Shown in pieces: positions 8,339 to 58,000 of a DNA stretch of 64,000 bases (within the stretch, counting starts at the first letter, position 1; each line of letters starts with the position of its first letter). Source of the DNA: Ignavibacteria bacterium (lineage in GTDB: Bacteria > Bacteroidota > Ignavibacteria > UBA10030 > SZUA-254); contig JACOSX010000017.1 in NCBI GenBank assembly GCA_016178625.1, positions 6,213 through 70,212 on the forward strand. Reading direction: 5' to 3'. The position numbers and the translations under genes are program-made. The notes under the pieces were generated by a model. The model had not been told where the DNA came from. It did not search any database and worked only from the letters and a program-made list of their open reading frames with translations.

Positions 8339-9664
8339 ATGGATGAACTACGTAATGACAAAGAACCGATCACCCCCTTGGCGGTTACCAATTGGCGAGA
8401 CATCAGACGAACGTTCGGCATCAAGCGGAAGAACCGGCGTGGACACATCTACGTCATTGGCAAGAGCGGGACAGGGAAATCGAGCTTGATGGGTAATATG
8501 GTCATCTCCGATATGGAGCAGGGCTACGGTTTAGCGCTCATCGACCCCCACGGGGATTTGGCTGAAGCTGTACTCACCTACGTGCCGGAAAAGAGACTAG
8601 CCGATGTTATTTATTTCAATCCGGCTGACGTAGCATGCCCGATTGCTTTTAATCCACTAAAGAATGTTGCCCCTGACCAGCGGTACCTCGTGGCCTCAGG
8701 ACTCATTTCCGTATTCAAGAAAATCTGGGCAGAATTCTGGGGACCGCGCTTGGAACACATCCTACGGTTTTCACTCTTGACGCTCTTGGAATATCCACAG
8801 AGCACCTTGCTTGACCTGCCGAGACTGTTGACGGACGCCCAGTTTAGAAAAGAGGTAGTCTCAGGAGTAACCCAGCGTGAGGTACAAGAATTTTGGTCTA
8901 ACGAGTTTGACCGTTATTCGGCCTACTTCAGGTCAGAAGCGGTCGCTCCCATACTCAACAAGATGGGGCAATTCCTCACCAGCCTCCCCTTGAGAAATAT
9001 CGTAGGTCAAAGGCAGACGAGCTTTACCATGCGCGAGGCAATGGATTCTGGGAAAATCCTGATTGCCAATGTATCGAAGGGAAGAATAGGTGAAGATACG
9101 AGCTCGCTCTTGGGGGCGATGCTCGTCACGGAGATTCAGTTAGCTGCCTTGAGCCGAGCCGACACGGAAGAACACCAGCGCAGGCCGTTCTACCTCTACA
9201 TCGATGAGGTACATAATTTCCTCACGACTTCTGTCGCCGACATGCTGTCAGAGAGCAGGAAATTCAACCTTAGCATTACGTGCGCGAATCAATTTACCAA
9301 TCAGTTGGATGACGATGTACGTTCAGCCATTCTCGGCAATGTGGGAACGATAATCTCGTTTCGCGTCGGTCCGGAAGATGCCGAGCTACTCGCCAAGGAG
9401 TTCTCTCCGGTCTTCACTGAATCAGATATCCTCAACCTCCCAAACCATAGCATCTACTTGAAGCTCATGATTGACGGTGTCACCTCCCTACCCTTCAGTG
9501 CCACGACACTCCCTTTGCCTGAGCCCGTATCTTTCTTGGTGGAAAAAATTATCGAAGCTTCACGTAAGCGATATACACGTCCAAGAAAAGAGGTGGAGGC
9601 AGAGATACTGTTGAAGGCCAGGAAAGAACAAAGACGAGAGATCGATCAGCCGAGCCTGTTCTGA
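8339..9664 (+). CDS. TraD/VirD4-like P-loop ATPase (T4SS coupling-protein-like, FtsK/HerA superfamily)
   Basis: Walker A VIGKSGTGKSS, Walker B FYLYIDEVHNF; 441 aa; divergent from the DNA-processing operon. Confidence 0.6.
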   Translation: MDELRNDKEPITPLAVTNWRDIRRTFGIKRKNRRGHIYVIGKSGTGKSSLMGNMVISDMEQGYGLALIDPHGDLAEAVLTYVPEKRLADVIYFNPADVACPIAFNPLKNVAPDQRYLVASGLISVFKKIWAEFWGPRLEHILRFSLLTLLEYPQSTLLDLPRLLTDAQFRKEVVSGVTQREVQEFWSNEFDRYSAYFRSEAVAPILNKMGQFLTSLPLRNIVGQRQTSFTMREAMDSGKILIANVSKGRIGEDTSSLLGAMLVTEIQLAALSRADTEEHQRRPFYLYIDEVHNFLTTSVADMLSESRKFNLSITCANQFTNQLDDDVRSAILGNVGTIISFRVGPEDAELLAKEFSPVFTESDILNLPNHSIYLKLMIDGVTSLPFSATTLPLPEPVSFLVEKIIEASRKRYTRPRKEVEAEILLKARKEQRREIDQPSLF

Positions 9665-13806: not shown

Positions 13807-14598
13807 TTAGAATAATTTGTACAAGTGTGACGGCTGGGGAATTTCTTTTATTTGAATGTGTTGGATTAATTTCTCAAGCTTATCCATGAAGGCGTGGAAA
13901 TCATCATGACGATCGACCGCGAAGCCCCAGTAAAACGATAGATTGTGTCCCAGAGAATAGGACTTGCCCTGCACGAGTTGAATATCCATCCAAGTGAGGT
14001 TAAACCAATTATCACGAAGCACCCCGTTTAACTGAATGATGGTTTCAGCATCGAGGTATCCTGCATAAGTACTGAGGGTAGAGATAAGCTCATTGTTAGC
14101 ACTCTGCGCTTGATCTGTAAGAAACTGTGAGACGTAGGGATATTCTAAGCCAAGATATGCCCGCCACGATGAATCGTATAAGGGCACTTGCGACCTCACG
14201 TCTATCTGGCCGAGACTGGAAATAAAAGATGAGTCCAATATCCTTTTGAAAAGGGCAATAAAGGTAAAACTGCTATCCCATTCAGAAGTGGACATGGGTT
14301 TGGTTCTGTTTACTGCATTAATCGAAAAAACGAGATGTCCAATTCCTTGGGCAATCTCATGATATGCGATTTGGCGGACTGTGTCTCTCTGTCTTTCTTG
14401 CCACTCGGAATGCCGGCGATTTTCATTGGAGGAAAGGACAGAAAGGATAGCAATAGTAACAGCAGTTAGAAGAGCAATTCTCCCCACTAGAGTAAGTCTT
14501 CTAAGACCCCTTTTTTGGGAGTTCCATGTATTACCTACAATCCCGACCACAGCAGTGACAAGGCCGGCCAAGTGCAAAAGCAAATCCCTATCAATCAA
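13807..14598 (-). CDS. hypothetical membrane-anchored protein (2 N-terminal TM helices plus a roughly 200-aa soluble domain)
   Basis: 263-aa ORF directly downstream of the TIR gene. Confidence 0.5.
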   Translation of the reverse strand: MIDRDLLLHLAGLVTAVVGIVGNTWNSQKRGLRRLTLVGRIALLTAVTIAILSVLSSNENRRHSEWQERQRDTVRQIAYHEIAQGIGHLVFSINAVNRTKPMSTSEWDSSFTFIALFKRILDSSFISSLGQIDVRSQVPLYDSSWRAYLGLEYPYVSQFLTDQAQSANNELISTLSTYAGYLDAETIIQLNGVLRDNWFNLTWMDIQLVQGKSYSLGHNLSFYWGFAVDRHDDFHAFMDKLEKLIQHIQIKEIPQPSHLYKLF

Positions 14599-14779: not shown

Positions 14780-15250
14780 TTAGCTCTTAGATGAGAGTAT
14801 AGCGATGCCAATGAGTACGCCAAGTGCTATCAGAAGTGCTCGGTCGTTCTCTTTCGCCATCCTGAGACGCTGAAGATAAGAGAGCAATGTCGATAAACTG
14901 CCAGGGGGATTGCCGAAGTCAAATGGGTTGTACTCTCGACCTTGTAGCATCGCTAAGCTTCGATCCGGTATACCAGGTTGAACGAGCGGAATGATCAACT
15001 TACCAGAGGCTTCTGCAAAACCGACTTCTTGTTGAACGTAAGGAGAGAGATGACTGGTAAGCGTGAGAAGAACTACAACCGCATCGGCGACTTGAATGGC
15101 TTGCTTTACCTTTCCAGCGAGTAAGGTTCCGGGCTGCGGATCGTGCTCAAACAGATATGTTTCTATCCCAATGCTTGTAGCATTAGACGCGATCCACTTA
15201 ACCCACTCTGAATCGCTGGCACTGTGACTGAGGAAAACTTTGTAACCCAT
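14780..15250 (-). CDS. TIR-domain protein with a C-terminal transmembrane anchor
   Basis: KVFLSHSASD N-terminal TIR motif and conserved Glu in YVQQEVGFA; C-terminal ALLIALGVLIGIAILSS helix; 156 aa. Confidence 0.7.
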   Translation of the reverse strand: MGYKVFLSHSASDSEWVKWIASNATSIGIETYLFEHDPQPGTLLAGKVKQAIQVADAVVVLLTLTSHLSPYVQQEVGFAEASGKLIIPLVQPGIPDRSLAMLQGREYNPFDFGNPPGSLSTLLSYLQRLRMAKENDRALLIALGVLIGIAILSSKS

Positions 15251-16101: not shown

Positions 16102-16452
16102 TCATACGCTCAGTACTTTGATGACAACACTGAGCAGCTCCTCTGGGTCATACGGCTTGGTGATGTAGTCATTCGCTCCAAGCTTTATGCACTCAAGCGC
16201 TGTTGAGATGTCCCGCATCACCGTGAGCATGATTACCCTCGGATGCTTATGAACTTTTTGCATCTCCTTAAGCACGGCCAAGCCATTCATCCGACGCATC
16301 TTCATATCGAGCAAAACAATATCGTAGTCAAGCTGCTTGATTTTCTCTAGGGCAACATCGCCATCATCTGCCACGTCCACCACAAAGTCTTCATTGGTGA
16401 ACTGCTCATAGAGTGACTGTCTCAATTCCACACTATCATCAACCACGAGCAT
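16102..16452 (-). CDS. stand-alone CheY-like response regulator receiver
   Basis: VVDDS...D...LLDMKM...K receiver signature; 116 aa. Confidence 0.8.
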   Translation of the reverse strand: MLVVDDSVELRQSLYEQFTNEDFVVDVADDGDVALEKIKQLDYDIVLLDMKMRRMNGLAVLKEMQKVHKHPRVIMLTVMRDISTALECIKLGANDYITKPYDPEELLSVVIKVLSV

Positions 16453-16522
16453 TTTTGGTTTTACCGTACGACTCTCCGATGGCGTAATGAAACAGAGCTA
16501 TCGTATACTGCCTTCGTTTGCC

Positions 16523-16888
16523 TCACGATGAAATCCGCTCGATTGTTGCCAGGAGGTCCTGGATGTCGTACGGTTTGCTGATAAAATCTTCGGCACCATA
16601 CTGCTTCGCTTCCATGGCTTGTTTGAGGTCAGCAAAAGCGGTCAGCATGATCACCTTCGTCTCGGGGCTTTGCTGCTTGATGAACCTCAGTACCTCCAAG
16701 CCGTCAACCATCGGCATGCGCACGTCGAGGATTGCAAGGTCAAAGTGTTCACCTTGGACGAGGGCTATGGCTTCACCACCACCGGCAGCGGTGGTGACCT
16801 CATAGCCAGCAGCCGAGAGCACGTCGCTCAAGGTACTCCTGATGTTCTCCTCATCATCAACTATGAGGAGGTGAAGGTTGTGAGCCAT
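16523..16888 (-). CDS. stand-alone CheY-like response regulator receiver
   Basis: LIVDDEENIR, ILDVRMP and KP receiver signature; 121 aa. Confidence 0.8.
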   Translation of the reverse strand: MAHNLHLLIVDDEENIRSTLSDVLSAAGYEVTTAAGGGEAIALVQGEHFDLAILDVRMPMVDGLEVLRFIKQQSPETKVIMLTAFADLKQAMEAKQYGAEDFISKPYDIQDLLATIERISS

Positions 16889-17053
16889 CCGTTATTGTTC
16901 GTACTGTCTAGTAAACGATTGGAGAGTGAACGGCATAAAAATACGAAAGAAAGTTACGAATTCCAAGCGATATTTTGTTGCAGACGTACTTTTAAATGGA
17001 AGGCAACAAGAAGGCTCGGAAATTTTCCGAGCCTTCTCCAGTTCATGGGAATA

Positions 17054-17206
17054 CCTCTACTTACCACAGGCTCGATAGTCTGGGCAGGCCGGGGTTCCGC
17101 ACAAGGGACAACCCCCTCGATCAACCTTGGGGCTTGTTCCGGAGAACCCTAACGCAGTGACCACCAGTGCAAGCACGGTAAGCAGCAGCGTGAGTTTCTG
17201 TTTCAT
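17054..17206 (-). CDS. small secreted Cys-rich peptide (50 aa), start overlaps the CsoR-family stop (ATGA)
   Basis: MKQKLTLLLTVLALVVTALGFSGTSPKVDRGGCPLCGTPACPDYRACGK; signal peptide plus CxxC and CxxxxxC; not in the ORF track. Confidence 0.4.
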
Positions 17207-17658
17207 CGTTTCATCTCCTTTCGAGGTTTTGGTTGTTGTACGGCGTTCAGTGAATTACGCAACCAGGCGAGCTCGTCGATGAGCCCCTTGAGATCCAACT
17301 TGGAAAATTCGTGACGTAAAAACTGCAATCGCTCAGCGTCATCGCAGTCCCCAGGACAGAGAGCGAGCCGTTCGGTGAGCACTTCAGCAAAATGTGCCTT
17401 GAGGTGGTCATTCAGGACGACGTAGAGAGCTTGATGGAGCCCTCGCTCAGCAGCTTTGAGTTGTCCATAGATTTCCTTCACTGACCGATCGCTGGTCATC
17501 ATTCGCTCAATGCCGTCGAGCTGACCTTTGACGAAGTGGATACGTTTGAGAAGCTCTCGTTTTTCTTTCTGACCAAGTGGCGGACGATCATTTTTCACGT
17601 TAGCAATGTAAGAACGTACAGGGGTGTTTGTCAAATTCTTAGGTGAAAGGCAACGCAC
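17203..17658 (-). CDS. CsoR/RcnR/FrmR family (DUF156) transcriptional regulator with atypical ligand residues and a C-terminal CPGDC
   Basis: LLKRIHFVKGQLDGIERMM helix typical of the family; the canonical Cys/His ligand positions are not conserved. Confidence 0.55.
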   Translation of the reverse strand: MRCLSPKNLTNTPVRSYIANVKNDRPPLGQKEKRELLKRIHFVKGQLDGIERMMTSDRSVKEIYGQLKAAERGLHQALYVVLNDHLKAHFAEVLTERLALCPGDCDDAERLQFLRHEFSKLDLKGLIDELAWLRNSLNAVQQPKPRKEMKR

Positions 17659-18192
17659 TCAGGCAGGGGCAACAGCGGGGGTAATTGATTTCACAAATGA
17701 GTTCACATCCCCGAGGCAGCATTCGCCCTTGGGATTCTTGATGTCGCAGGCGCAGTTGCCGGCTTTGACTTCTTTAGCAATCTGCAGGGAGGCTGTTGAT
17801 TTTCCTGTGCTGACGAGCTCTTGTTTGATTCGGGCGCGCGTCCAATCGAAGCAATAGCAGACGCTCACATCTTCGCCCTTGTCCTTCGCGAAAGCCTTAA
17901 CCCTAACATCATCGATGGTGAAATATGGAACACTTTCATTGGAGAAGTAGACAACTCTACAGTTCGAATCAGCGCAGTAATAGTATTGCACGTTTTGAAT
18001 TGAGCCAATTTTTTCGGGCTTCAAGAGATGCTCAAGGGTACGCTTTTGTACCTTCTTCGAGACCGTTCGTGAAACCGGACACTGGGCTCGTGCAGGGGCA
18101 GGAGTGGTATCCGTGACTAAACAACACTCATCACCGACTTTATGTTTATCTTCTGCAATTACCTCGATCGGTTGGACGCAGCAGTTATTCAT
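17659..18192 (-). CDS. vicinal-cysteine-rich hypothetical protein (CC, CxxC, CYC, CAC, CC motifs)
   Basis: Starts at MNNCCVQP (internal Met of track ORF 17659..18264), directly after the MerT-like stop. Confidence 0.45.
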   Translation of the reverse strand: MNNCCVQPIEVIAEDKHKVGDECCLVTDTTPAPARAQCPVSRTVSKKVQKRTLEHLLKPEKIGSIQNVQYYYCADSNCRVVYFSNESVPYFTIDDVRVKAFAKDKGEDVSVCYCFDWTRARIKQELVSTGKSTASLQIAKEVKAGNCACDIKNPKGECCLGDVNSFVKSITPAVAPA

Positions 18193-19247
18193 CGTTTTGT
18201 TCCTTTCGTTTGCGGAGAGCAACATTCGGACTTGCTTTTCTCTTTGCTCTCTTTGGAACAACATGCATCTTCATTTCCCGATGGTACACTTTCCCTTTTG
18301 AGTATTTGCAGATCGGGCATATTTCCTTTGCCAAGATACTTTTCACCAGCGGCAACGACATCCCGTTCAATCCGATGGTACAATGAATCATCAAGTTCGT
18401 TGAACGATTGGAGGGACAGGAAGCCGCGTTGGATTATCGCTTTGACATCTTCACGAAACGCCTGCTTGTCTTCGCCCGTTTTGAACTTAACATGTGGACT
18501 AACGCCCGTGAGAATCCGGTCAGCGATAACGCCCGCTTCCTCAATACTCAGCGCATCAACGTCTGAACCTTTATACCACATATCCTTCGCTTTGAAGTCC
18601 TCGAGAAGGGTAGTTCGATCCTGCTCACTTACTTGCTCAATCGGTAGTTCATGTCGAGAGAACACCGACTTGAGCACCGTTTGGTGTGCTGTGGCACTCG
18701 TGCCTTCATTCCATACCACAGCCATGACGGTTCCCCGCCGGTTCAGCCAAGCTCCTTTCACGGTTGAGTCTTTCATGAGATCAAGCAAGATGAACTTTGC
18801 CCTGCTGCCACAACCGATACTCGGCGCGGCATTACACACCAGAGGCACATCGAAGAAGCTAATGTCCCGGTCAAGGATCAGGGAACTGTTCTCGGAAGGC
18901 TTCGACGGTGAAGATGACGCTGTGAATCCAAAATATGGAAAGGCGATTGCGCCGGCCGCAACAAGAGTTGCGCACCACACGCCGATTTTGTTCCAGAGGC
19001 TGGAACTTTGAACCTTGCAGCTCCCGTCTTCACACTTCACCTCGCGTTTACGATAGGCGAAGTAGAACGCAAGACCGAGAAGAAGTACCGTAAGACCGAT
19101 CAGGTATGAGCGGTAAGGTTCAAGCATGGAAAACAGGCCGATACTACCAACCCCGATCAGTGCCAACGCCACGGGTCCGATACAACACAGGGACGCAATG
19201 ATTGCGGCAATTACTCCACCCGTGCTTGAGAAGGTTGCTTTACTCAT
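18189..19247 (-). CDS. MerT-like membrane transporter fused to a C-terminal domain ending in paired CC motifs
   Basis: First TM carries SLCCIGP (MerT-type vicinal Cys), the loop has CEDGSC, and three TM helices are followed by a soluble domain with CC...CC. Confidence 0.55.
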   Translation of the reverse strand: MSKATFSSTGGVIAAIIASLCCIGPVALALIGVGSIGLFSMLEPYRSYLIGLTVLLLGLAFYFAYRKREVKCEDGSCKVQSSSLWNKIGVWCATLVAAGAIAFPYFGFTASSSPSKPSENSSLILDRDISFFDVPLVCNAAPSIGCGSRAKFILLDLMKDSTVKGAWLNRRGTVMAVVWNEGTSATAHQTVLKSVFSRHELPIEQVSEQDRTTLLEDFKAKDMWYKGSDVDALSIEEAGVIADRILTGVSPHVKFKTGEDKQAFREDVKAIIQRGFLSLQSFNELDDSLYHRIERDVVAAGEKYLGKGNMPDLQILKRESVPSGNEDACCSKESKEKSKSECCSPQTKGTKR

Positions 19248-19264
19248 ATCCTATATTCTTTCAT

Positions 19265-19654
19265 TTAGTGTAACAGGGCTTGTTCTGTTGTTTCTTTTGC
19301 GGTGAACATCTTCAACAAGGCTTTGGTAAGTGTACGCTCCACCAAGGAGTAAAATATGGTTTGTCCTTCGCGACGTGCGGTCACGAGCTTTTTGTCTTTG
19401 AGTCTACGGAGGTGTTGAGACACAGCGGAATCAGTGATCTCCAACACTTCGGCGAGATCGCACACGCACATTTCCCGATGGGCATGAAGGAGATAGAGGA
19501 TACTAAGCCTCTGCGGATTCCCTACCGCAGAGAGGAGATCCGCCAAAGTGTGCAATGGTTTTTGTTGTGCAAGATTTCGTTTGATGAGGAGCAGCTCAGC
19601 CTGCGAAAACGTTGGACCAACACAGAGCTTGCCGTCGATGTAGATTTTCTTCAT
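19265..19654 (-). CDS. ArsR/SmtB family metalloregulator
   Basis: CVCDLAEVLEITDSAVSQHLRRL metal-binding and HTH signature. Confidence 0.8.
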   Translation of the reverse strand: MKKIYIDGKLCVGPTFSQAELLLIKRNLAQQKPLHTLADLLSAVGNPQRLSILYLLHAHREMCVCDLAEVLEITDSAVSQHLRRLKDKKLVTARREGQTIFYSLVERTLTKALLKMFTAKETTEQALLH

Positions 19655-19668
19655 GATTTGATGAGTTA

Positions 19669-19697
19669 ATAGTTTAGTTACTGCTTAAATACTAAAC
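19669..19697. promoter_or_regulatory. inverted repeat GTTTAGT-N11-ACTAAAC upstream of the ArsR start (candidate operator)
   Basis: Palindrome 15 to 45 nt upstream of the arsR-like ATG. Confidence 0.3.
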
Positions 19698-19804
19698 AAT
19701 ATATGAACCAGAAAGTTCCAAATCAAGTTGCAGACCCGGTCTAAAACGAGGTTGCGAAAGTAGAAAAGCGGTCGTCTTCTTAGATGGAAGAAGACAGAGA
19801 AGGA

Positions 19805-20092: not shown

Positions 20093-23000
20093 TCACTTCA
20101 TCAACAGTAACTTCTTGGTAGCCTGATATGTCTGCTTGCCCGATCCATCGGTAACATTCATCCTGACGTAGTAGATGCCGCTCGATGAACTTCCAGCGTC
20201 CCAAGTTGCGTTGTAGAACCCTGCATCGAGTTCCGCTTCCACGAGGTGAGCCACCTCCTCGCCGAGCACGTTGTACACGCCCATACGCACAAGCGCGGGC
20301 GTTGCGAGCTGATAAGAGATAGTTGTGACCGGATTGAACGGGTTGGGATAGTTTGCATTAAGTCTCGTTTCTGTTGGTAGCGGGAGTTCATTTCCTTCAT
20401 TCCCATCTCTTCGTTGCTTCGTCACGACCGGTCCAGAGCCAGAGTTCACTGATATAATGTTAGAGTTTGGAGAGCTCTGGCAGAAGTTATCAAGAGCGGC
20501 AACGTAGTACGAGAAAACCGATGTTGGAGTAAGATTTCCAGAAGTTTTCTGGAAGACCGTGATGTCGTGGTCGGTGTAGCTTGTGTTTGGACCAGTGAAA
20601 ATGAGTGAGGCAGCTGGTTGACATTCGGTACTCGCCCACGGGCACGAGTATCGCCACAGTTGGTAGGACAACGCTCCAGCCACCGTCGTCCAGCTGAGCG
20701 TCGGATTAGTCCCGGGTGCGCACGCACTGCACGAAAGCATTGGCGCGGGCAGTAGATCCGGAGAGATCGAGGGAAGCTGAATATTCTTGATCCTGAACGG
20801 CGGGCCGGTGGCATCCACGTATTCAACGTAACGATCATCCTGACTATTAAACGTCGTGGTAATGCTGGCTTGACGACCGGTCGCATCAAGAACACCGGGA
20901 AGACTCCAGGTGTTGTGATATTGTGCCCACGATGTTCCATTGTTTGCGCTGTACCAAACGAGCGCGAAGTCGTTACCCTTCGTCGACGAGGATCGGTAGT
21001 CAGTGATGGTCGGTGAGTAAGGGTAATTCGGGGTGCCGGAACAATTCGAAAAGGTGTAGTTGTACACTACATCTGCGAGCGTTGTACCAGCTCGCTGCTG
21101 CACTTTGATATTCCCCTGTGATATCGAGACGTCGCGATATTCCCATGCTATCGTAACTCTGTTGGATACGTCCACGGCAAGAGACGGTCTTGCGTTGGTG
21201 AGAATGCTTGAATTGCTGGCAACGGTGAACGGTCCATACCAGGTGATATTCGAAGCCTGAACAGCGGCGGAGTTGGGTAAATAGCCGAGCATGTACTTGA
21301 TGCCTCCCGTCGACCCTCGTACTTCCCATGCCAGGTAGAAGAGATAGCCCTTGCCGCCATCCGGTCCCGGACCGGTCGTGACGGCGAAGGTTGGATTTGT
21401 CGCTCCGACCCCCGGTGTGAGTGCGAGGTTGGTAAAGGCGTTGAAGGGATAGGCGCTCACCCCATACTTTAAGCCCACATCTTTATCACACCACACCGCC
21501 GCGAATATCGAGGAGACGGTCGGTCCGGTTTGCGGCTTCGTCATGACACCGACAGGCATCGACTGGAAAGAACTGTCCCCGGAAAAATAGCCGAGTTGTA
21601 AAACATTACCAGGACTCTTTTCCCAGAAAATGGTGTGGATGCCAACGCTGAGATCGGGATACTGCACCTGATCGTACAATTTGGATACGGTTACTCCTAC
21701 AGAGTCGCCCACGAGTGCCGGGTTGCGATAGATGATGGTCGATGTGGGGTAATCGCCCACGACAGTTTCGGGAGGCCAGGTGAATCCGTAGGTGTAAAAT
21801 ATTGTGCCTGCGCTTTCATACACCACGTGGATGCCTGTAGTCGTCTGCACAACTCTTCTCTGACCGGTCGGTGAGAGCGCAGCCAGTGTTGAGGTGCCTA
21901 AGTGCGCTTTGTACTGAGCCTTCGCATACATGAGATTTACCGGATCGCGGAAAATGACCGGTCCGCTTGCGCCACCCAGTGGGACGTCTGCGCCGATACC
22001 GATCCATTTGATGAAGTAAGAATCGAAACCCCCTATTGGCTGGGTTGAAAGGGCTTCAACTTCATAGAATGGCTTTAAGGGTTTATTTGGATCTGGCTCT
22101 TCTCCCAAGAACACTCCCTTGTAATCCGTCGTATGATCTCTCAACTTAAAAGGCGAGCCAAGAGGGTTCCGCGGTGCGCTCCCTCCCTGGTTCCGCGCGT
22201 TACTGCCGTAACTCGGGTCGTTAAAATCTATCAACCACGGATCTTTAAACTTGATCGTTCCCCCTTCAACCGCAGGCGCATCGATGAGCTCGTTGCGAAT
22301 AATCGTGTTGGCGTTTGAATATGATGAGATCGACTTGAAGTTGGACCTAAACGTATTTGTTTGTGCTGTAATCGGAAAAGCATGATGGTTGACCACGTCA
22401 GGATCGGTATTCCACCTGTTGTATTTCTCCGATCCCGAGACGCCCCCGAGCACGTCCTGAGTGCCTCGCAGCACCTCGGTGGAGGTCGGATTAACCGCAA
22501 AGATCGCTTGCTGAGATTGTGTCAATGTGAAGCTATAATTGTTGTAATCAGTATTCCAGAGTCCGGTGAACGAGCTTCCGTTCCAGCGCTTGGGTGTGTC
22601 ATACGTGAGATCCCCGCTGCTGAATATTTGATCGATGGTGGCGAGGATCGTGCTATGCTGCGCAAGGTAAATCCACTGATGCACCACGCCGCCTCCGTCA
22701 GTGCGTCTATCCGTCCAAACGGGGTACGCCATCTTGTTTGTTGCGGCAATACCGATGTAATCCCCCATCCTGGGGTTCGCCATTCCTAACGTGGACGTGG
22801 CAGAACTGACTTTCGCGTGGGTAAATGTTTTGCCCCGATCCGCGGAGGCTGCCACGAAGACGTTAACGGTGGTATCACCGGGAAGCACACCGTAGTACGC
22901 TACATACACCTTCTTGCCGTCCGGACTGACACTGACACGCGGAGCCCAAAATTTACCAGCCACGTTGTTTAGCCTCCGAAGCGGCCCTGTGAAGTCATAT

Positions 23001-23965
23001 CCCGTGCCATACGTCTGTGAGCTGGCAAAATAAATGTTTGGACCGCCGGTTCTATTGTCTGCCCATGCCATATACAGGTAGTCAGTTGTTCTGTCGATCG
23101 CGCAAGACGGATAGCTATTCACCTTGAGCGTGGAATTACCGATAGTGATAGAATTCACCTCTGAGATACCTTGTATCACGGCGCTCGCACCACTGGAGAA
23201 TGTTAGTCGATCCGTCGATAGGTTGAGCCTGATATTACCACCCGACTCAAACCATAACACATACACATAGCCCGAGCTGCGAACCACTATCGAAGGTCCC
23301 TTCGAGTCCACGGCGTCGTTGTAGCTGATCTTCAGTGGTGTTGTGAATGTTAAGCCACTCGGACCGTAGGTATCTGTTGCATAACAGATTTGACTCTTTG
23401 TGCCGTTATTAAATTTCTTCGTCCATGCGGTAAAAATCCCGTTCGTTGATCCCGTTGCCAGAGTAACTTCATCTTCAAAATCAGTTCCCCCGGAGGGCGA
23501 GTTGTGATCAACCACCGTGAAGAGATCGGGCCACGTCGCACCGTTGTTGACGGATCGCGCTGCGAAAATACCATTTTTGTCAAATTTGTTCGCCGTGTCG
23601 TATGAAACAAATGCATACCACGCTTCGCCGTTGTTTGCTGCAAAGGCGACCTGCGGTCGAGCGCTGAAGCTGCCATGAGGATTGTACCCCAGTGCATATT
23701 CGGTCCAACTGGCTCCTCCATCAACAGAGTACGAATAGTGAAGTTGTTCTTCACCGTTATTAAACTTCTCCGATCCGACGGCGAGCTTGCTCGAATCGTT
23801 CGGATTCACAGCGATGGTCGGATTCCACCACCAATAGATTGAATTGTCGTGACCGACGACCACGTTGGTGGGTTGAGCGATTACCTTAGATTGCACACTG
23901 AGCATGATGAATACAAGGACCACAAGCTCAACGAGCAGCATGCACTGAGTTCGAACGCGTATCAT
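20093..23965 (-). CDS. BNR/Asp-box repeat secreted protein with a T9SS C-terminal sorting domain
   Basis: Signal peptide; SxDxGxTW-like boxes (SVDGGASWT, SVNNGATWP, SADRGKTFT); C-terminus NYPNPFNP...GIYYVRM...KKLLLMK. Confidence 0.75.
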   Translation of the reverse strand: MIRVRTQCMLLVELVVLVFIMLSVQSKVIAQPTNVVVGHDNSIYWWWNPTIAVNPNDSSKLAVGSEKFNNGEEQLHYSYSVDGGASWTEYALGYNPHGSFSARPQVAFAANNGEAWYAFVSYDTANKFDKNGIFAARSVNNGATWPDLFTVVDHNSPSGGTDFEDEVTLATGSTNGIFTAWTKKFNNGTKSQICYATDTYGPSGLTFTTPLKISYNDAVDSKGPSIVVRSSGYVYVLWFESGGNIRLNLSTDRLTFSSGASAVIQGISEVNSITIGNSTLKVNSYPSCAIDRTTDYLYMAWADNRTGGPNIYFASSQTYGTGYDFTGPLRRLNNVAGKFWAPRVSVSPDGKKVYVAYYGVLPGDTTVNVFVAASADRGKTFTHAKVSSATSTLGMANPRMGDYIGIAATNKMAYPVWTDRRTDGGGVVHQWIYLAQHSTILATIDQIFSSGDLTYDTPKRWNGSSFTGLWNTDYNNYSFTLTQSQQAIFAVNPTSTEVLRGTQDVLGGVSGSEKYNRWNTDPDVVNHHAFPITAQTNTFRSNFKSISSYSNANTIIRNELIDAPAVEGGTIKFKDPWLIDFNDPSYGSNARNQGGSAPRNPLGSPFKLRDHTTDYKGVFLGEEPDPNKPLKPFYEVEALSTQPIGGFDSYFIKWIGIGADVPLGGASGPVIFRDPVNLMYAKAQYKAHLGTSTLAALSPTGQRRVVQTTTGIHVVYESAGTIFYTYGFTWPPETVVGDYPTSTIIYRNPALVGDSVGVTVSKLYDQVQYPDLSVGIHTIFWEKSPGNVLQLGYFSGDSSFQSMPVGVMTKPQTGPTVSSIFAAVWCDKDVGLKYGVSAYPFNAFTNLALTPGVGATNPTFAVTTGPGPDGGKGYLFYLAWEVRGSTGGIKYMLGYLPNSAAVQASNITWYGPFTVASNSSILTNARPSLAVDVSNRVTIAWEYRDVSISQGNIKVQQRAGTTLADVVYNYTFSNCSGTPNYPYSPTITDYRSSSTKGNDFALVWYSANNGTSWAQYHNTWSLPGVLDATGRQASITTTFNSQDDRYVEYVDATGPPFRIKNIQLPSISPDLLPAPMLSCSACAPGTNPTLSWTTVAGALSYQLWRYSCPWASTECQPAASLIFTGPNTSYTDHDITVFQKTSGNLTPTSVFSYYVAALDNFCQSSPNSNIISVNSGSGPVVTKQRRDGNEGNELPLPTETRLNANYPNPFNPVTTISYQLATPALVRMGVYNVLGEEVAHLVEAELDAGFYNATWDAGSSSSGIYYVRMNVTDGSGKQTYQATKKLLLMK

Positions 23966-29298: not shown

Positions 29299-32200
29299 TT
29301 ACTTCATGAACAGCATCTTCCTCACGCTCATGAATCGCTGGCCCGGCGTACCTTCCTCATCGTCACCGATACTCTCGGCTGTGAGATGATAGAAGTACAC
29401 TCCCGAAGAAAGGCTGCCCGCATCGAACAGCACTTCCTGTGTTCCATCGTCCACTAACTCGTGGTTCAGTAATCGTGCAACTTCCTGACCGAGCACATTG
29501 TAAATCTTCAGGGTGACAAATGCCCGTTCAGGGAGATAGAACTGAATCGTCGTCGTTGGGTTGAACGGATTGGGATAGTTCTGCTCAAGCGTGAAGACAT
29601 CAGGTTGCTCTTCAATAACCTGACGGGGAGTATTCTTCGGCGATGTTCCACCTATCCGTATGAGGAATGGAACTTCGGAGAGCGCCTTCGTGCCGGTGAG
29701 AGCGAGTTTGTTGGCAACCATCCATGTGGCTGTGTCTTGCGCCGTCAGAGGCAGCGCACCGGCGAATGCAGCATTGATGGTTGTTATGATTGCGTCAAGA
29801 TCGGCATACTCCTGATAGGAGACACCTTCCCAGTTTGTGAGCATCGAGTCTGCCATCTCTGCAATCATCCCGACTGTACATTCGGGTCCATCGACGAACC
29901 ACGGTGAGCCGCCGGCTGGTGGTAAGTACACCAGATCACCAAAACCCGTCGGAGTTTTCCTGAATTCGCTGGCAGCGATATTGATCTTTAGCGCAAGAAG
30001 ATTCGCAAGGAAATGATTGTTATGCTTGATTGCCGGTACGCTCTTTTGTCGTTTCAAGATCGGCTTGCCTTTGACATCGAAGTCAAGACCACGAGGTGTT
30101 CCGGTGTGTGGAACGCCTTTGGTGTTGAATGTCTTGAAGACGTCGGACTGCTTCGCCGGATGCAAGTATCCCTTGATCTTCTGACCGCTATTCAGTTGAT
30201 TCGGGAGACCCGCAATCAACATACCACCTTGTCGCAAGACTTCGTCGATGACGTTGGCAGTGTTCGGCAGGGGGACAGGTTTGCCGGGCTTCGGCCGCTT
30301 GACCGGTTTTGCTTGATCGCTTTGCGCAAGCTGTTCCGGTGTGAACGTACGGAATCTCACAGTTGTATCCGGCTTGAAGACATTCAGGAATAATATCGTC
30401 GCCCCGCCTGTTGAATCGGCGATATCAACGATCACTGAGTCTGCATTGTCCGAACGTAGAGTATCGTTGACATACACGCGGTCAAATAGGTAGTTTGCTA
30501 CCGGGAAACGCCGGATAGCATACTTCCCTTTGTAGCAAATCGGAAGAGCTACATTGTCCGTCAGAATTCCAGAGAATACCGATTGGAATGGTGTGGTTGG
30601 ATCACTCTGGTACGAAATGCTGATGGGCCAAGGATAACAAATCGGCAGGATAATTGACGGTGTCAGCACGGGAACCTGAGGCACGCCAACCGTATCGTGA
30701 CTCAACCAAATATGGATCCATTTGAATCGGTTGCCGAAATCGAGACCCATGATTGACTGGCTGTCTTTAACAGTCACACAATAATAGGGTGGACTGATTG
30801 GCCAGGTCTGCTGCCAGCCTGGTCTGTGCTCTTCGTACACACAATAGCATCCGCAAGGTATATTCATGAAGCAATAGAAGCCGGCAGAGTCTGTTAAGGT
30901 GCATGCTACTGTGTCTTTACCGGGATATCCATCGGAATTGCACTTTACAAGACAGATCCTCCAATTCGGGATTCCGAACTCGGTGCCGTAGTTGAACTTG
31001 TGGTTGCCGTTTTTGTCGTTCCATTTCCTGCCATAGATGCGTCCCTTACAACTGTCGCAGTCCTTGAGTGTCAGATGATACACGTTCGACGTATCTTTAC
31101 AGAAGGAAGGACCTGGACCTGTGAGGATGAGCGAATAGTTTCCGCTTCCGACTGGTGTCAGTGTATCATTCGTGCCGTTGGTTGGTGAAATTGGATTTCC
31201 ATTGAACAACCATTGATAGGTATAGTATCCAATGTAAGGACCAACTGGGCCGGGAATTTTTACGGTATCGCATAGCGTATCGCATCCGAAAGGAAACAGC
31301 GTAAAATCCGGATCAGTGGATAACGTTACAGTGATGCTTGCGCTGCTTGTGCATCCGTTTGGATCAGTATAGGTAACCGTGTAGACTCCCGAAGTGTGGA
31401 CGGTGATGCTCTGGCTCGTCGCACCGGTATTCCAGAGATTGTTTGTCGCATACGAGCTGGTCAATGTCACGGAATCGCCCTTGCAAAACGTCGTTGGACC
31501 GCTGGCAGTAATTACAGGAGGTAGCGGAACACCATACACGTTGATTGTAATTGGTGCAGATGTCGCAAAACATCCGGTGCTCGGGTCTGTTACCGTTACA
31601 GAGAATGTATACGCGCCAGGGGTGTTGGAAAAGAAGAAGAGCGTCTGATTCGTTGAGGCGTCGGACCAGAGGTAGGTGTATGGACCAGCCGGTGCGGAAA
31701 GTATGACGAAACCACTACCGCAGATAGTCTGAGAACCATTCACAGTAATCACCGCTGGCGGCAACGGGTTTACAATCACAACGACAGGTTGGGTTGTGCA
31801 CTTACAACCGGTAGCCGGATCCGTGACAATGACAGTGTAGCTGCCCGGTTGCGTCGCAACGTAAGATTGGGAGGTTGCGCCTGAGATATTTGTTCCATTG
31901 AGCAGCCACTGGTACGCGCTGCCGGATGTTGCCGTAAGTACTACTGATCCTCCTGCGCAGAATGGCGGAGGATTGGAAGGTGAGATCGAGCACGTGTTAC
32001 TCGGCGCATAGATCGTGATCGTGTGTGTGACCGTATCTGCACAGCCGGTAGCATCCTTGACAATCAGCGTTACGGTATACGTTCCGGCTGCACTCCACGC
32101 GTGAGACGTATTTTGCAGTGCCGAGGTTGCCCCGTCTCCGAAATCCCACGACCATGAGAATGCGGGTCCTGCAGACATCGGAATATCATCGCCCAGGCAT

Positions 32201-35190
32201 GCTGTCGCAGGAAGTGAGAATGCGGCTGATGGTGGCGATGTAATGGTTACCGGAATCGTGATCGTCGACGTGCAGCTTCCGTTCGATATTGTGAGAGTCA
32301 CGTTATGGATGCCGGGCGAAGAGAATGTGACCGTCGGTGGATTCTGTCCGATAAATGATGAAGGGGTGCCGCCGAGGAATGTCCACGACCATGAGGTGAT
32401 ACTCGTGCCCGACACATACGTCGAGATGTCGGTGAAATTCACCGAACCACATGTTGTGACGAAGCTGAAGTTCGCGGCTATGGGTATCAGAATAGTCTTT
32501 GTTGTGCAGACTTGACAAGTTCCAGAAGGTACGGCTGGAACCGAACCACACACTGTTACCTGGTAATAGCCCGCCTGTGCGTAGACGTGAGTGGGACTCG
32601 ACCCGCTTCCAGTTCCGCCATCACCAAACGTCCAACTGAAACCACTCACGTTCGATGAGATTTCATTGAACTGGATGTTGTTGCACTCACCGCTGATGTT
32701 ACTCGTCGTAAAATCGAGCGTGTAAGATTGTGGAGTGCAGGGTGTTGGAGGAGGGCACGGTCCCGCCGTGATCGTGATAACGTTTGATGTATCCTTGCAT
32801 CCGTTGGCATCAGTGACGATGACGGTATAGCTTCCCGTCTGGGTTGCAGTGTATGTAGCGGATGTCGCGCTGGGGATGTTAACCCCATTTAATTGCCATT
32901 GATATGAATATCCAGTGCCTACAAGTGCATATAATGTGGTATTGATGGTCGGGGTCGGCGGGGTGCAGAAATTTATCGGATCCGGTGTAGAAATGCTCGC
33001 GGTTGGGCCCGGTGTGTGCGGAACATCGATGCACACTGAGGCGGTACAACCTGCTGCAGTCGTGACCGTCACGCAATACTGTCCGCTCGATGTCACGATG
33101 ATGGACTGCGTGTTGGCGCCATTCGACCAAGCATAGGAGGCGAAACTTGGGTTCACCGTGAGGATAACCGAGCCACCCGGATCGCAAACATGTCCCGTCA
33201 TCGAGATCGTCGGTGTTGGTTTGGGATTGATTGTCACGGGGAAGTTATATGTCATGCCGCAAACGGAAAGATGAACGACAGCAGTTCCGCCCGGTCCGTG
33301 CCAAAGCACGGAGATTGTACTCGTGCCTTGTCCGCCTGTAATAGATCCCGCTGATGACAAATTACCAAACCCATCTTCAATCGTCCACACATAGTTGATA
33401 TTGGGATTTGGAGATCCAACCGTATATGCGACGGTTTGATCCATGCAGACGGTACTTGGTCCGCTGATCGATGAGATTGCCAGGACGTTGACAGGCAGAC
33501 TGATCGGCGGTGACTTACAGAATGGTGGAGTGGTCATTACCTGTTGCACGGAGATCGTTCCCGATCCAGTCCACTGCACGGTGACACTCGCTCCGGTATT
33601 CGAACCAATGATCGTGCCGCCTGTGACTGACCAGAGATATGTGAATCCAGTACCAGAAGGAGTTACGGTATATTGGTATGTGAAACTCCCTCCCGTACAC
33701 ACTGTCTGTGGGCCGACGATAGCAACCGCGGGAGGTACCGCCACCACTGTTACTACTTGTGACGCGCTCGCGTTGCACCATGCATTTGGATTCACCGGTG
33801 TTGCTGTGACGGTTTGGGTGCCTGCGCTTGTCCAGACAATTGTTCCTGACGTTGTGCCGTTACCTGCAATGACCGTTCCGCCAGTTGCTGACCAGTTCGC
33901 GTTGTCGTTCGCGTAGAAAGTAGAGGTGTCTCCTACACAGAAAGGACCTGGTTGTCCGGCCATAATAAACTCTGGTTTCACCTTCACTTTGATGGTGTCG
34001 GCGCCACCACAACCAAGCAGAATATTATTCCAAGTAGCGATGATGAAGCAATTACCCGGGGTAGTTGGCCAGTTGATTTGTATCGTATAGTTATTTGGAT
34101 TTGTGATGATTGTGCCGCAAGTTGTCGTCCATGTGTAGTATGTACCGGGCCACAAGGGGAGCGTGTAAATAGAAGTTGATCCGGGACAGACAGTCGTTGG
34201 GCCACTGATCGGGCCATTGTTATTGATAATCGGAACGATCACCGTTGTTGTATCCTGACATACGTTTGTGCATCCGGTGACGTAGAGTGAAATGGTCCCT
34301 TGCGGACCCGAGCCCCATTGTACACAGATACTTTGAGTGTTCCCCGGAGGAAGGATCGTTCCACCATTGACAATCCAATGGTACACAGGAGTTGTGCAGC
34401 CTGGTGGCAACGTTGCGGAGTAACAAGCCTTGGCACCTGCGCAGACGGTTGCCGGACATTCAATGCCCGGTCCCTCGAGATTACTCACGGTGATGGTATG
34501 TGTAACGGAATCTGAACAGCCGCACTTGTTGTACGCTACCAGCGTGACCGTGTATGTGCCGGCGACCAAGTATGAATTTGAAGGATTGACCTGCGTGGAA
34601 GTGTTGCCGTCGCCGAAGTTCCAAAAATATGAGATGGCATTGATCGATTGGTTGATAAAGTTGACGACTTGCTTCTTACAGACGCTACTTGGTGCGCTGA
34701 ATGCGGCGATAGGGGAGTTGATGATTTTCACGCACCGCTCGTCTTTGCCGACACAGTGGTTCGTATCAGTCTCAACGACGGTGATCTGCCCTGAACCCGC
34801 CGATCCCCAGAGCACGGTAACGCAGTTGCTCGTCGAACTGCCGATGATCGTTCCCCCAGAGACAGTCCACACATACGTGTTGCCCAGATGAAGCGCGACG
34901 CAATATGTCGCATATTGGTTCTCACAGGCGATGAGGCAGCCACCTTTGTGGTCTGGTCCCCCCACAGTACCTTGCGTCGTATCGAGACAACTCGAATCAG
35001 CCTGGAACGACGAGACGATTGTCGGATGCGGTGGTATGCTATTGGGAGGACAATTCTGGCTCAATCCTCCGGCAACGCACAAAAGTATCAGAATGAACGC
35101 GCTGAACAGTGCCCAACTTGTTTTCATATTGGTTCCTTTCTTGAAATTGGACCGTGAAAAAATGTCGATTAGTGTGTTCGTCTTAATCAT
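29299..35190 (-). CDS. 1963-aa secreted PKD/Ig-like repeat protein with a T9SS C-terminal sorting domain
   Basis: Signal peptide, many PKD-like units (WNFGDGNTS...[11 protein letters not shown]), C-terminal [14 protein letters not shown]...GVYFYHL...KMLFMK. Confidence 0.8.
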
Positions 35191-55026: not shown

Positions 55027-58000
55027 ATGGCAACGAGACGGTTCTCGACAGGTCTTCCAAAGCTTGACAACTATATAGGTGGACTCCTTCCCGGCGATGC
55101 CTTACTCACCTTTGTCTCTCAGAACGCTCACGGCAATGATCTCATCTCGTCAATCATAGGTTATGCAAGCGCTTCACATATTCCCCTTCTGTACATTTCA
55201 CTGGATGATTGCTATAAGAGGGAGATCGGTCAATATTCAAAGCTAAAATACATCAACATCTCGCCGACACTAAAGCCGCCCACCATCGTTAAGACTGTCA
55301 AGCGCTTTCTCTCGAAATATGCCAGAGACGGATATCTTATTACGGATGATCTTTCCTCGTGGAAGAAATACCTACACAGCGATCGAAAGGTGAACGATCT
55401 TTACACTGTTCTGACAGCATTTGCTGAACAGAGGCGCATAGTTCTCGCGTGCACTGCCTCCCGTGGGGCTTTTTCAAGGGAGACCCTTGCGAATCTCAAG
55501 GATGTATCCACAATCTGCCTTGACTTCATTAGATACGGAGGCAACGAATATTGCGTTCCACTTTCATTGAGAGGAAGATACATTTCCCATGGAATCCTTC
55601 CGCTCCGTTTTCAGCTATACGAGCTGACGAGTCCCGTTCGAGAGAATCCATCCTCTGAAGTGGAATTGTCCTCCTTGCTCACCGAAAAACAATCCAAAGA
55701 GCTTGATGCGCTCTTGATGAATGATGAGCGAAAATACCTGCAGATATTTCATGGGTCTGCCGAGGCGATGGTCTTATTTGATCTCGATGGAGATTATCGA
55801 GAGATCAATAAACAGATGGAAACCATTTTGGGATATTCGAGTGCGGAATTTCGCCTCATTCCACCGACATCTATTGTGCTTCCGTCAGAACGCATCCGAT
55901 TTCTTCGAAAGATCGTTGAGCTTCAGCGACGAAAGCGGGGTTTCATCACTCTTACAGTTGCAAAGAAAAATGGGAAGCATCTTCCCATAGAGTTTCATGC
56001 GTCGAATATCTCTGATGATTTATACCTCGGTATCCTACACGACATCACCGAATCTCAGCAAAGAGAGATGGCTCTCCTCCAACGAGAAGAAGAATATCAA
56101 AGGCTCGTCGAAGGTCTCCCATTCCCGATCATTGTATCTCACAATCGGAAGATACTTTTTGTGAACAGCGCGTTTTTCAAGATGTTCGGATACTCGAAAG
56201 ACGATGGTATGGGAGTGTGGGCAATAAACGATCTGCTCACTCCCGAATCGATGAGAACATATCAGAAGACACTTCGAGAGCGAACTTCATTTGTTGAACC
56301 GTTCACCTTCGAGGTCCATTGCTTACGCCGTGATGGGACCGTATTCGAAAGCGAACTGACGCTGACAGACATTCCATTTCGCGGGAAGAAGTGCCTTCAC
56401 CATAGCCTGGTCGATATCTCCACGACGAAAGGTCTTGTCGAGAAATTAACCGCTTCGGAGGAACGATATAGAACACTTGTGGAAACATCGAGCCAACCGG
56501 TGACGATAATCCGCGAAGGGAAATTTATTTTTGCGAATAAAGCATTCTATGAATTGTTTGGATTTGAAACAGATCAACAAGTCATCGACCATGACATCTC
56601 ACTTGTTGTGGCTGATGATGAGCGTGAACGATTTGCTGAGACAATGCGCAAACGCTTATCTTCCAAGGGATTGTCGACGATTGAGTTTGGAGGAGTTCGC
56701 ACTGATGGAAAGAACATCACCATAGAGCTTGTTTTGCATCCGGTGCAAGAGCACGAGAGCCCAGTTCTTCTTGGATTTTATTATGATCGGACCACGGATC
56801 AGCAGATCAAGAGAGAACTTCACCAACGGACAAGTGAGATGGCTCTTCTCAAGGAAGTCCTGCCGGCTCTTCAAAGTTCCTTGGATGCTCACCGCCTTGA
56901 GCAGGCGGCAATGCATAGGATTATGGATGTATTGTCGTGGGCGAGTGGTGGAATCTATACCATCGATGAGAAGAGCAAACAGTTCGTCTTGGGATATCAT
57001 CGAAACATGTCTGACGTGCTTGTACGAAAGCTCTCTTCCATGAGTGTTGATGAAGGGATAGGCGGCTATCTCTACAAGACACTTGAGCCACGAGTGTTTT
57101 CCACGGACCACTATCCCAGTTATCTACCGCATCGTTCCAGTTTCCGCGATGCGGGATTCCAGAAGGTATGCTTTCTTCCTTTGGTCTCTCACGAGAAGCT
57201 TGTGGGGTTGATCATCCTAGGGGCAAAAAAGGACACTCCCGCTCTTGCGTCAGAGTCAGTAGATCTTCTCACGGCGATTGGCAACTATTTGGGAAACGCA
57301 CTCGCGACGGCTAAGGCACATCGCGAGATCAGCGAATCAGAAAAGAAGAAACACCGACTCATTGACTCAAGTCCGAATGTGTTGTATATCGCTTTACCAA
57401 CCGGGTCTTTCGTCAGCGTCAACGCGGGAATCGAACGGCTTGTGGGATATTCACCAAAAGATTTCTCTCGTAATCCCTCCCTATGGTTAAAAGTTGTTCA
57501 CCCGGATGACAAGAAGATTCTTCTGGAGCGTACTACTCAACTACATGGCTTGGGTGAACGCTCTGTGACTGAATACCGCGTTCTTCCAAAAGGGAAGGCA
57601 TTGTACCGTTGGGTTCAAGATGTCGTTTCGATTGTTCGCGATGACTCAGGGAACGTCACGGAATTACTTGGAGAGATCTGTGACATCACGGAACAAAAGG
57701 TGTTGATCGATCAACTGAGAGATGAAAGCGTGCTTCATACGAATATTCTCTTCAGCGTCCCTGAAGGTGTGGTTGTGTTTGATCGCAGTCTCAAATGCTT
57801 GAAGTGGAACAATGCGATGGAAAACATCACGAGTATCCGAGAGGAAGACGTTCTGGGGAAAGATGTCGTGAAGTCTCTCCCAGGTGTTGATGGGCAGGAA
57901 TTCGAGCAAATGATTCGCACGGTGATGCGCGGGGAAGTTGTAACTTCGCGCGATCTCCCCTACACCGTCTCCGGAACGAAGAATGTCGGCTACCTTTGGG

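Follow-up and report, generated by a model that had tools for sequence, protein, structure and literature searches.

Can a mercury resistance (mer) operon be complete without its reductase MerA, or is a mer-type gene cluster without merA the remainder of a larger operon? This question is raised by five genes of an Ignavibacteria bacterium that lie on a stretch of 64,000 nucleotides (contig JACOSX010000017.1, positions 6,213 to 70,212; the whole stretch is termed the window below). The locus represents one assembly of the exchangeable parts from which a modular mer system of the Ignavibacteria/Bacteroidota lineage is built, and the position of MerA is taken by a protein (zfCopZ) related to the N-terminal domain of CopZ, a copper chaperone. 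The function that we favour, at a probability of roughly 0.6 (a figure that includes the general reading of the locus as a mer variant), is Hg(II)-inducible uptake followed by binding of the metal by, or its hand-off to, zfCopZ.

Organization of the gene cluster

Open reading frame (ORF) analysis of the window placed the five genes head to tail on the minus strand between positions 17057 and 19654. All reading frames and cysteine motifs that had been described in an earlier note on this DNA, made from the sequence alone, were recovered.

19265-19654, minus strand: arsR, 129 aa with the motif EMCVCDL; ArsR/SmtB-family metal sensor
18189-19247, minus strand: merT-fusion gene, 352 aa; CC in the first transmembrane helix (TM1), CEDGSC loop, tail ending ..ACCSKESKEKSKSECC..
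17659-18192, minus strand: gene for the CopZ-N-terminal-type [2Fe-2S]/Zn protein (zfCopZ), 177 aa, starts MNNCC
17203-17598, minus strand: CsoR-family regulator gene, 131 aa from a GTG start
17057-17206, minus strand: Cys-rich peptide precursor gene, 49 aa; signal peptide followed by CPLCGTPACPDYRACGK

The arsR gene is separated by 17 nt from the merT-fusion gene, whose stop codon is overlapped by the ATG of zfCopZ (ATGA). A 60-nt spacer lies between the zfCopZ and CsoR-family genes, and the peptide gene is again ATGA-coupled to the CsoR-like gene. The latter starts with GTG in the window and with ATG at the homologous position in a related locus (L093); its longest possible ORF would encode 151 aa. 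In Pfam and NCBIfam profile searches all four larger products scored above the curated family cut-offs. A regular-expression scan of all six frames of the 64-kb window revealed neither a GMxCxxC HMA motif nor a MerA-type redox motif, and the public annotation of the contig lists no Pyr_redox gene in this neighbourhood. The interpretation of the cluster as a reductase-less operon for thiophilic metals, of the mer type, is supported, and no MerA is encoded in the window.

The partner of the importer is exchangeable

From genome and metagenome collections 171 related loci were gathered and annotated by a BLAST census; 154 of them are non-redundant. Their parts are combined in a modular manner: the regulator is ArsR or MerR, MerT is accompanied by a periplasmic HMA domain, by a domain termed X (described below) or by both, and a unit of CsoR-like regulator and peptide is optional. 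The slot of the cytoplasmic partner is filled by MerA in 20, by zfCopZ in 30 and by a GDCCVxC-domain protein in 64 of the 154 loci, and MerA-less forms outnumber the MerA form in this set, which was retrieved by similarity. The gene zfCopZ directly follows merT(P/X) in its 30 non-redundant loci, which is the position of merA in the sister operons. Both genes together were found in none of the 154 loci, where about 4 co-occurrences would be expected in this similarity-retrieved sample if they were independent. The gene order of the window recurs in other genomes, in full in L093 and in part in five further loci (L119, L154, L098, L101 and L005). Close homologs of ArsR, MerT, X, the CsoR-like regulator and the peptide do adjoin merA elsewhere, an arrangement that the earlier note had linked to a fragmentary mer operon. 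The outcome of this comparison is mixed: the parts are those of mer operons, but a fragment is rejected as the main reading, since the merA-less form is intact in 30 non-redundant loci, is operonic with ATGA overlaps and is conserved across divergent genomes.

The commonest gene after X-containing MerT transporters encodes a GDCCVxC-domain protein (NF041374, 89.9 bits; for example L011, 9011-9226). In the 64 loci it follows MerT-X, MerTP-X or MerT-HMA-X under a related ArsR, nearly always without merA. These (seleno)proteins are small (about 70 aa) and Cys-rich, they are unrelated to zfCopZ, and none is encoded in the window. A selenoprotein version of zfCopZ was considered for the 526-bp gap after merT-X of L007 and rejected, as the gap holds an uncalled GDCCVxC gene (8963-9205); this gene is absent from the source annotation in both L007 and L008.

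zfCopZ, an iron-sulfur type protein in the merA slot

The 177-aa protein matches NF047645, the family "putative iron-sulfur cluster-binding metallochaperone", with 126.2 bits (cut-off 100) and zf_CopZ PF18423 with 58.8 bits (cut-off 28.4). Its residues 38-160 align with the N-terminal domain of Archaeoglobus fulgidus CopZ (PDB 2HU9, E 1.7e-8), and the CxC...C...CC pattern is kept. C112, C114, C149 and C158/159, which are conserved in 30 family members, align with cysteines of 2HU9. The 2HU9 cysteines that are matched by CYC, CAC and the C-terminal CC are reportedly the [2Fe-2S] ligands in the CopZ structure published in 2007, and all four of them are kept. Of the other four 2HU9 cysteines, presumably zinc ligands, three align with C38, C73 and C78, while the fourth is replaced by Ser in this subfamily (CPxC reads CPVS); judging from the alignment, an upstream CC pair could substitute for it. 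A 36-residue N-terminal extension contributes two CC pairs, the second of which is conserved throughout the operon-linked family. The earlier note had regarded vicinal cysteines as a hallmark of Hg handling. This does not hold for CYC, CAC and the C-terminal CC, which would not be free Hg-binding pairs because they are aligned with the cysteines taken as cluster ligands. Unlike the full-length CopZ copper chaperone, zfCopZ gave no match to a C-terminal HMA domain in Pfam, NCBIfam and a motif scan.

Genes of the zfCopZ type, annotated as "(2Fe-2S)-binding / CopZ family", are also carried by plasmids from other phyla, immediately after merF or after a merR annotated as Hg(II)-responsive. A merR1-zfCopZ pair is present on a Cohnella plasmid (L181), and merR-zfCopZ pairs are found on Peribacillus (L177) and Deinococcus (L180) plasmids; in Peribacillus a multicopper oxidase gene comes next. 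A Stanieria plasmid (L182) carries the order MerR-like-merF-zfCopZ, followed by an S-adenosylmethionine-dependent methyltransferase, and an Enterococcus plasmid the order ArsR-P-type ATPase-zfCopZ. No annotated merA was detected within 4-5 kb of the plasmid zfCopZ loci in the PLSDB gene tables, which are incomplete. The iron-sulfur family has so far been catalogued only bioinformatically, as NF047645 and in selenoprotein surveys (PMC9312934, PMC13188914).

A separate observation concerns L152 (7537-8205) and L155 (4204-4872), in which a 222-aa product contains an HMA motif in addition to a distant zfCopZ domain and so has the full architecture of A. fulgidus CopZ. This gene follows MerTP-X-GDCCVxC, and these are the only loci with both a GDCCVxC and a zfCopZ-type gene.

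The ArsR regulator and its operator are shared with merA operons

The first gene product is an ArsR protein (HTH_5/NF033788, 94.7 bits versus a cut-off of 55). It is 65-73% identical to the ArsRs that head most ArsR-MerTP-MerA operons (L115, L116, L122, L124, L128, L130 and L143) and 57-60% identical to the ArsR of another such operon (L148). The reductase assignment was verified for the ORF of L116, which matches TIGR02053 with 513 bits (cut-off 454). Three cysteines, C11 near the N-terminus and C63 and C65 of the CVC motif at helix alpha3, are invariant in 23 related ArsRs whatever gene follows; this layout resembles the alpha3N arrangement of CadC. In other sister loci ArsR is replaced by MerR, whose score against TIGR02051 (144 bits) is just under the cut-off of 150.85.

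Two control elements were located upstream of arsR:

19698..19726, minus strand: promoter-like site of the arsR-led operon, TTGATT-17-TATATT
19669..19700, no strand: inverted repeat with arms 19669-19678 and 19691-19700 that overlaps the -10 region; probable ArsR operator

The inverted repeat had already been noticed; its 10-nt arms are 90% complementary and separated by a 12-nt spacer. It sits within a conserved box, GTTaCAGTATTTAAGCAnnTnCTAAAATA, and overlaps the -10 region. The layout TTGAC..GGAACTTT..TATATT is kept upstream of 17 related arsR genes, including those linked to merA. A promoter/operator of roughly 45 bp with the consensus ACTTGACTnGGAACTTT..TATATTGTTACAGTATTTAAGCAnnTnCTAAAATA is common to operons with MerA, zfCopZ or GDCCVxC. 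As the identity of ArsR, its invariant cysteines and its operator are shared with merA operons, Hg(II) would be the most economical effector of this regulator.

MerT is fused to an HMA-like domain that is most likely periplasmic

The merT-fusion gene encodes three segments:

18930..19238, minus strand: MerT domain, aa 4-106 (PF02411)
18288..18866, minus strand: domain X, aa 128-320; HMA-like sub-domain followed by a helical bundle; predicted periplasmic
18192..18287, minus strand: Cys-rich tail, aa 321-352 (..ACC..ECC..); low confidence, predicted local distance difference test score (pLDDT) <50

Profile searches confirmed the MerT domain that had been recognized in the earlier note (PF02411, 57.5 bits versus a cut-off of 32.9, aa 4-106). 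It stays below the NCBIfam equivalog cut-offs (52 versus 150 bits for PRK13751, 75.7 versus 180 for the MerTP fusion). C21 and C22 in TM1 as well as C72 and C77 in the loop between TM2 and TM3 are invariant in 39 homologs. The roughly 245 residues after the MerT domain gave no match in Pfam or NCBIfam, HMA profiles included, and stand-alone X proteins scanned against both libraries gave none either. Nevertheless, X is a well-conserved family with invariant C138 and C146 (VPLVCNAAPxIGCGS), WLNRxGT, W179, W224 and DVDxLSxEEA, and one CC pair of the tail (C329/C330) is nearly invariant.

In the AlphaFold model residues 128-320 mostly have a pLDDT >90, while the CC-rich tail is disordered. The first approximately 75 residues of X adopt a beta-alpha-beta-beta-alpha arrangement like that of HMA domains, followed by a helical bundle. 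HMA domains are the only recurring structural matches (Ccc2a in Foldseek, TM-score 0.71), and the invariant pair C138-x7-C146 occupies the position of the HMA CxxC. The model of X accordingly has the ferredoxin-like HMA fold with cysteines in the beta1-alpha1 loop. The earlier statement that no MerP or HMA domain is present therefore stands at the level of sequence and falls at the level of fold. A cytoplasmic location had also been proposed for this part of the protein. However, X follows TM3 of MerT, about 40 proteins of the type MerT-HMA-X carry X fused after a MerP-like HMA domain, and X proteins that stand alone begin with a signal peptide or a lipobox; X is for these reasons most likely periplasmic. 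Because many proteins carry X in addition to a normal HMA domain, X is probably not simply redundant with MerP.

Domain X was found in about 109 genomes, mostly of Bacteroidota, and is part of genuine ArsR-MerTP-(HMA)-X-MerA operons (L036, L041, L044, L049, L060, L064 and L122). A homolog that is 39% identical over 136 aa (E 1e-28) is encoded after merT2-merP2 on the Hg-resistance plasmid pMR68 of Pseudomonas K-62, where it is annotated as a hypothetical protein (L176, 5899-6600; NC_019309.1, 60403-61104). This cluster is preceded by a gene pair for an extracytoplasmic function sigma factor and a DUF1109 protein, and the published analysis of pMR68 names only merT2-merP2 at this site (PMC3737084).

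A CsoR-like regulator and a predicted secreted peptide form a distal unit

The fourth gene product is a member of the CsoR family (Trns_repr_metal PF02583, 53 bits versus a cut-off of 22.8), in line with its previous assignment to DUF156. Its alpha1-alpha2 core aligns with CsoR of Mycobacterium tuberculosis (2HH7). The Cu(I) ligands Cys36-His61-Cys65 (M. tuberculosis numbering) read Val-His-His in the window and Val-Gln-His in the family consensus. The loss of the canonical copper ligands and the presence of CPGDC, both seen in the earlier note, are borne out. H55 and the cysteines of the CPGDC turn, C81 and C85, do not vary among 57 homologs. H55 is likewise invariant among more than 100 close relatives, which also have in common a C-terminal extension (LCPGDCDDAERLQFL..W) that is modelled by AlphaFold 2 as a turn and two additional helices.

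The unit is flanked by two further elements:

17605..17634, minus strand: internal promoter-like site TTGACA-18-TACATT with probable CsoR-like operator; conserved box
17008..17038, minus strand: terminator-like hairpin 3' of the peptide gene, 14-bp stem

The promoter in the spacer has 10 of 12 matches, and the box TTGACA(A/G)ACACCCC is found upstream of CsoR-like genes in seven loci, merA-linked ones included. Operators of the CsoR/RcnR/FrmR family are G/C-tracts, which the promoter-embedded C-tract box resembles. The spacer promoter and the box conserved in seven loci identify the CsoR-like gene and the peptide gene as a unit of their own, which is probably autoregulated. The hairpin at the other end (-27.8 kcal/mol, z = -4.76) was not equalled by any of 200 shuffled sequences. 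The same unit ends MerR-MerTP-MerA operons (L172/L173, 97 collection blocks) and an ArsR-MerTP-MerA operon (L175).

The peptide was present in the earlier note as an ORF missing from its ORF track. The ORF is real and is annotated in the public record (HYR76_01235), while its length is 49 and not 50 aa. It recurs in at least 12 loci, always with 49-50 aa, a signal peptide (MKRKL..ALAF) and the motif CPLxGTPxCPxYPxCCK; cleavage is predicted to follow ALG/ALA. Most pairs are saturated at synonymous sites; in those that permit an estimate, the ratio of nonsynonymous to synonymous substitution rates (dN/dS) is 0.05-0.29. Conserved length, motif and dN/dS argue for a real gene and rule out an ORF that arose by chance, and the ATG is preceded at a distance of 7 nt by an AAGGAG. 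An exhaustive phmmer search of 1.84 billion representative sequences yielded six further short members and nothing else convincing. A word-indexed homolog search returned only the query itself, and typical peptides matched nothing in Pfam and NCBIfam. The vicinal CC at the flexible C-terminus is reminiscent of the cysteine pair by which MerA transfers Hg, and by this analogy we propose that the Cys-rich part of the peptide, which would be periplasmic or secreted, buffers or delivers a soft metal.

Two other small proteins were encountered in this context. In L172 (1747-1902, minus strand) a 51-aa membrane-anchored His-rich peptide ends in ..HKSGHGCCK and thereby provides another example of a small protein that closes with CCK; its gene is divergent from the MerR-MerTP-MerA-CsoR-like-peptide operon. 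In L139 (6592-6900), L145 and L147 a thioredoxin-like ORF of about 103 aa (YFEGCPSY), with weak matches to Thioredoxin_3 and DUF2703, sits between MerTP and the CCK peptide gene. These loci are headed by MerR and have neither zfCopZ nor the CsoR-like gene.

Proposed function and alternative explanations

A model can be built on what was observed here, namely to which families the products belong, that they are orthologous to parts linked to merA, that operators are held in common, that X is modelled with an HMA-like fold and that the peptide is conserved. ArsR would occupy the operator overlapping the -10 region and leave the DNA when Hg(II) binds to its three-cysteine site. Domain X would act in the role of MerP, capturing Hg(II) on its C-x7-C loop, and perhaps on the CC tail as well, before passing it to the CC of TM1. 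MerT would then move the ion inward across the inner membrane, and its loop cysteine pair would hand the metal on the cytoplasmic side to zfCopZ, whose extra CC pairs could serve as acceptor. The CsoR-like regulator probably senses through CPGDC and controls its own promoter via the C-tract operator, and the secreted 29-residue Cys-rich peptide would probably buffer a soft metal in the periplasm or deliver it there. The parts of this model that we infer are Hg(II) as effector and substrate, a periplasmic X, the direction in which the metal is passed on and what becomes of it in the cytoplasm, and binding or hand-off is favoured over reduction.

Several points weigh against this model. The assignment of the substrate rests on guilt by association, and the only characterised relative of zfCopZ is a copper chaperone. 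The loci were retrieved by similarity to MerT-X, which makes the census other than an unbiased sample. The window peptide itself is slightly atypical (..CPLC.. and ..ACGK, with CGK in place of CCK). In L174 (5001-7599) a 73%-identical CsoR-like gene without a peptide gene has a P-type ATPase, a multicopper oxidase and CusB-type efflux genes as neighbours. The regulator subfamily thus extends beyond mer contexts, and on account of this copper context the effector of the CsoR-like regulator may be broader than Hg. In model systems that express merT and merP but no merA the import of Hg(II) does harm, and an importer without reductase thus needs a sink that is as yet unproven. Finally, MerA was sought in 64 kb of the genome, and a merA elsewhere is compatible with the data.

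This last point leads to the possibility of an accessory or partial mer operon, which would import and chaperone Hg(II) for reduction by a MerA encoded elsewhere, with zfCopZ as a cytoplasmic shuttle standing in for NmerA. Such a division is seen on pMR68, where merT2-merP2-X lies apart from the full operon. Some MerAs of sister operons have no N-terminal HMA domain (472 aa in L175, 468 aa in L115) and could use a separate chaperone, and the inspected 64 kb belong to a fragmented metagenome-assembled genome. Yet the operons with such a MerA carry no zfCopZ, the two genes never share one of the 154 loci, and several merR-zfCopZ pairs on plasmids have no annotated merA within 4-5 kb, and we therefore regard this explanation as unlikely. 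A somewhat smaller chance is given to zfCopZ being the detoxifying enzyme itself, reducing Hg(II) held at its CC pairs to Hg(0) via the [2Fe-2S] cluster as a flavin-independent replacement of MerA suited to anaerobes. The homologous N-terminal domain of A. fulgidus CopZ is reportedly redox-active and able to reduce Cu(II) (Sazinsky and colleagues, 2007). The shared and mutually exclusive slot, the conserved cluster-ligand cysteines, the minimal merR-zfCopZ cassettes and the rarity of MerA in obligate anaerobes (PMC3466566) would suit such an enzyme. On the other hand, no electron donor is encoded in the cluster and a one-electron cluster would need to perform a two-electron reduction; the GDCCVxC proteins that fill the same slot in 64 loci are without an evident redox cofactor, and this speaks for binding as the role of whatever occupies the slot.

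A system for copper, silver or another soft metal, in which MerT-X imports or exchanges Cu(I), the CopZ-like protein chaperones it and the CsoR-like protein senses it, appears improbable. The name of the zfCopZ family, the copper context of L174, metal-efflux genes of the resistance-nodulation-division type near several homologous loci and the multicopper oxidase behind merR-zfCopZ in Peribacillus would agree with it. The primary regulator and its operator are common to genuine merA operons, however, and both Cu(I) cysteine ligands are absent from the CsoR-like protein, which together with the peptide also follows merA. To our knowledge, MerT acts only as an importer of Hg(II). The trafficking of sulfur or persulfides, raised in the earlier note, finds no support and is given next to no weight. 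CsoR-family members such as CstR do sense persulfides through Cys pairs, and ArsR has weak similarity to BigR (46 bits versus a cut-off of 155), but genes for rhodanese, TusA, DsrE or persulfide dioxygenase are absent from the cluster and from homologous loci, and every association that was found is with mer genes.

Other features of the window

Directly downstream of the cluster, at 16102-16888 (minus strand), lie the genes of two response regulators of 121 and 116 aa that consist of a receiver domain alone, with neither an output domain nor a kinase nearby. A TIR_2-domain protein with a hydrophobic C-terminus (14780-15250, minus strand; 58.5 bits) adjoins a 263-aa membrane protein without Pfam match (13807-14598, minus strand), and the two may be an anti-phage defence pair. 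Very large ORFs are located at 20093-23965 (minus strand, 1290 aa), 29299-35190 (minus strand, 1963 aa) and 55027-61068 (plus strand, 2013 aa). The 1290-aa product has a weak C-terminal sorting domain of type IX secretion (24.8 bits, just below the cut-off of 27), which fits an origin from Ignavibacteria and the Fibrobacteres-Chlorobi-Bacteroidetes (FCB) group.

Significance and comparison with known systems

Mercury resistance is taught as centred on MerA, and surveys of mer diversity begin from merA or merB (PMC3466566, PMC8261052), for which reason operons without either gene are invisible to them. In Ignavibacteria, Bacteroidota and allied uncultured lineages this locus and about 150 relatives place one of three partners, MerA, a [2Fe-2S] protein or a protein of the GDCCVxC type, behind a shared regulator, operator and importer. 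In literature searches no description was found of zfCopZ in the merA slot, of domain X, of the CPGDC CsoR subfamily in mer operons or of the CCK peptide. The probably periplasmic domain X, which also occurs on pMR68, the CPGDC regulator and the 49-aa CCK peptide, predicted to be secreted, are testable additions to the mer toolkit. Should zfCopZ bind or reduce Hg(II), estimates of which microbes convert or store mercury in anoxic soil, sediment and groundwater would change, and new parts for Hg biosensing and bio-accumulation would become available. If zfCopZ, which stands behind merR or merF also on plasmids from Bacillota, Deinococcus and cyanobacteria, were a mercuric reductase or another redox protein that detoxifies Hg(II), mer operons would have a second, iron-sulfur-based catalytic core in lineages and habitats in which MerA is rare, and X, the CPGDC regulator and the CCK peptide would be further undescribed mer components.

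Compared to the canonical mer operons of Tn501 and Tn21 (merR-T-P-A-D), the cluster likewise starts with its regulator and encodes a MerT with four transfer cysteines, a periplasmic Cys partner and a distal regulator. It differs by the [2Fe-2S]/Zn protein in place of MerA, by the fused 200-aa domain in place of MerP and by the additional gene for a secreted peptide. The distal regulator takes the position of merD in Tn21 but belongs to the CsoR and not to the MerR/MerD family. Domain X shares its fold with MerP and other HMA domains and is set apart from them by C-x7-C instead of GMTCxxC, by a helical bundle of about 120 aa and by its CC tail. While A. fulgidus CopZ has a copper ATPase as its partner, the partners of zfCopZ are MerT and mer regulators. 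A parallel in control is provided by the mer operons of Bacteroidetes, which are under ArsR-type regulators as well (PMC3466566), and the sister operons of the cluster with 65-73% identical regulators contain merA.

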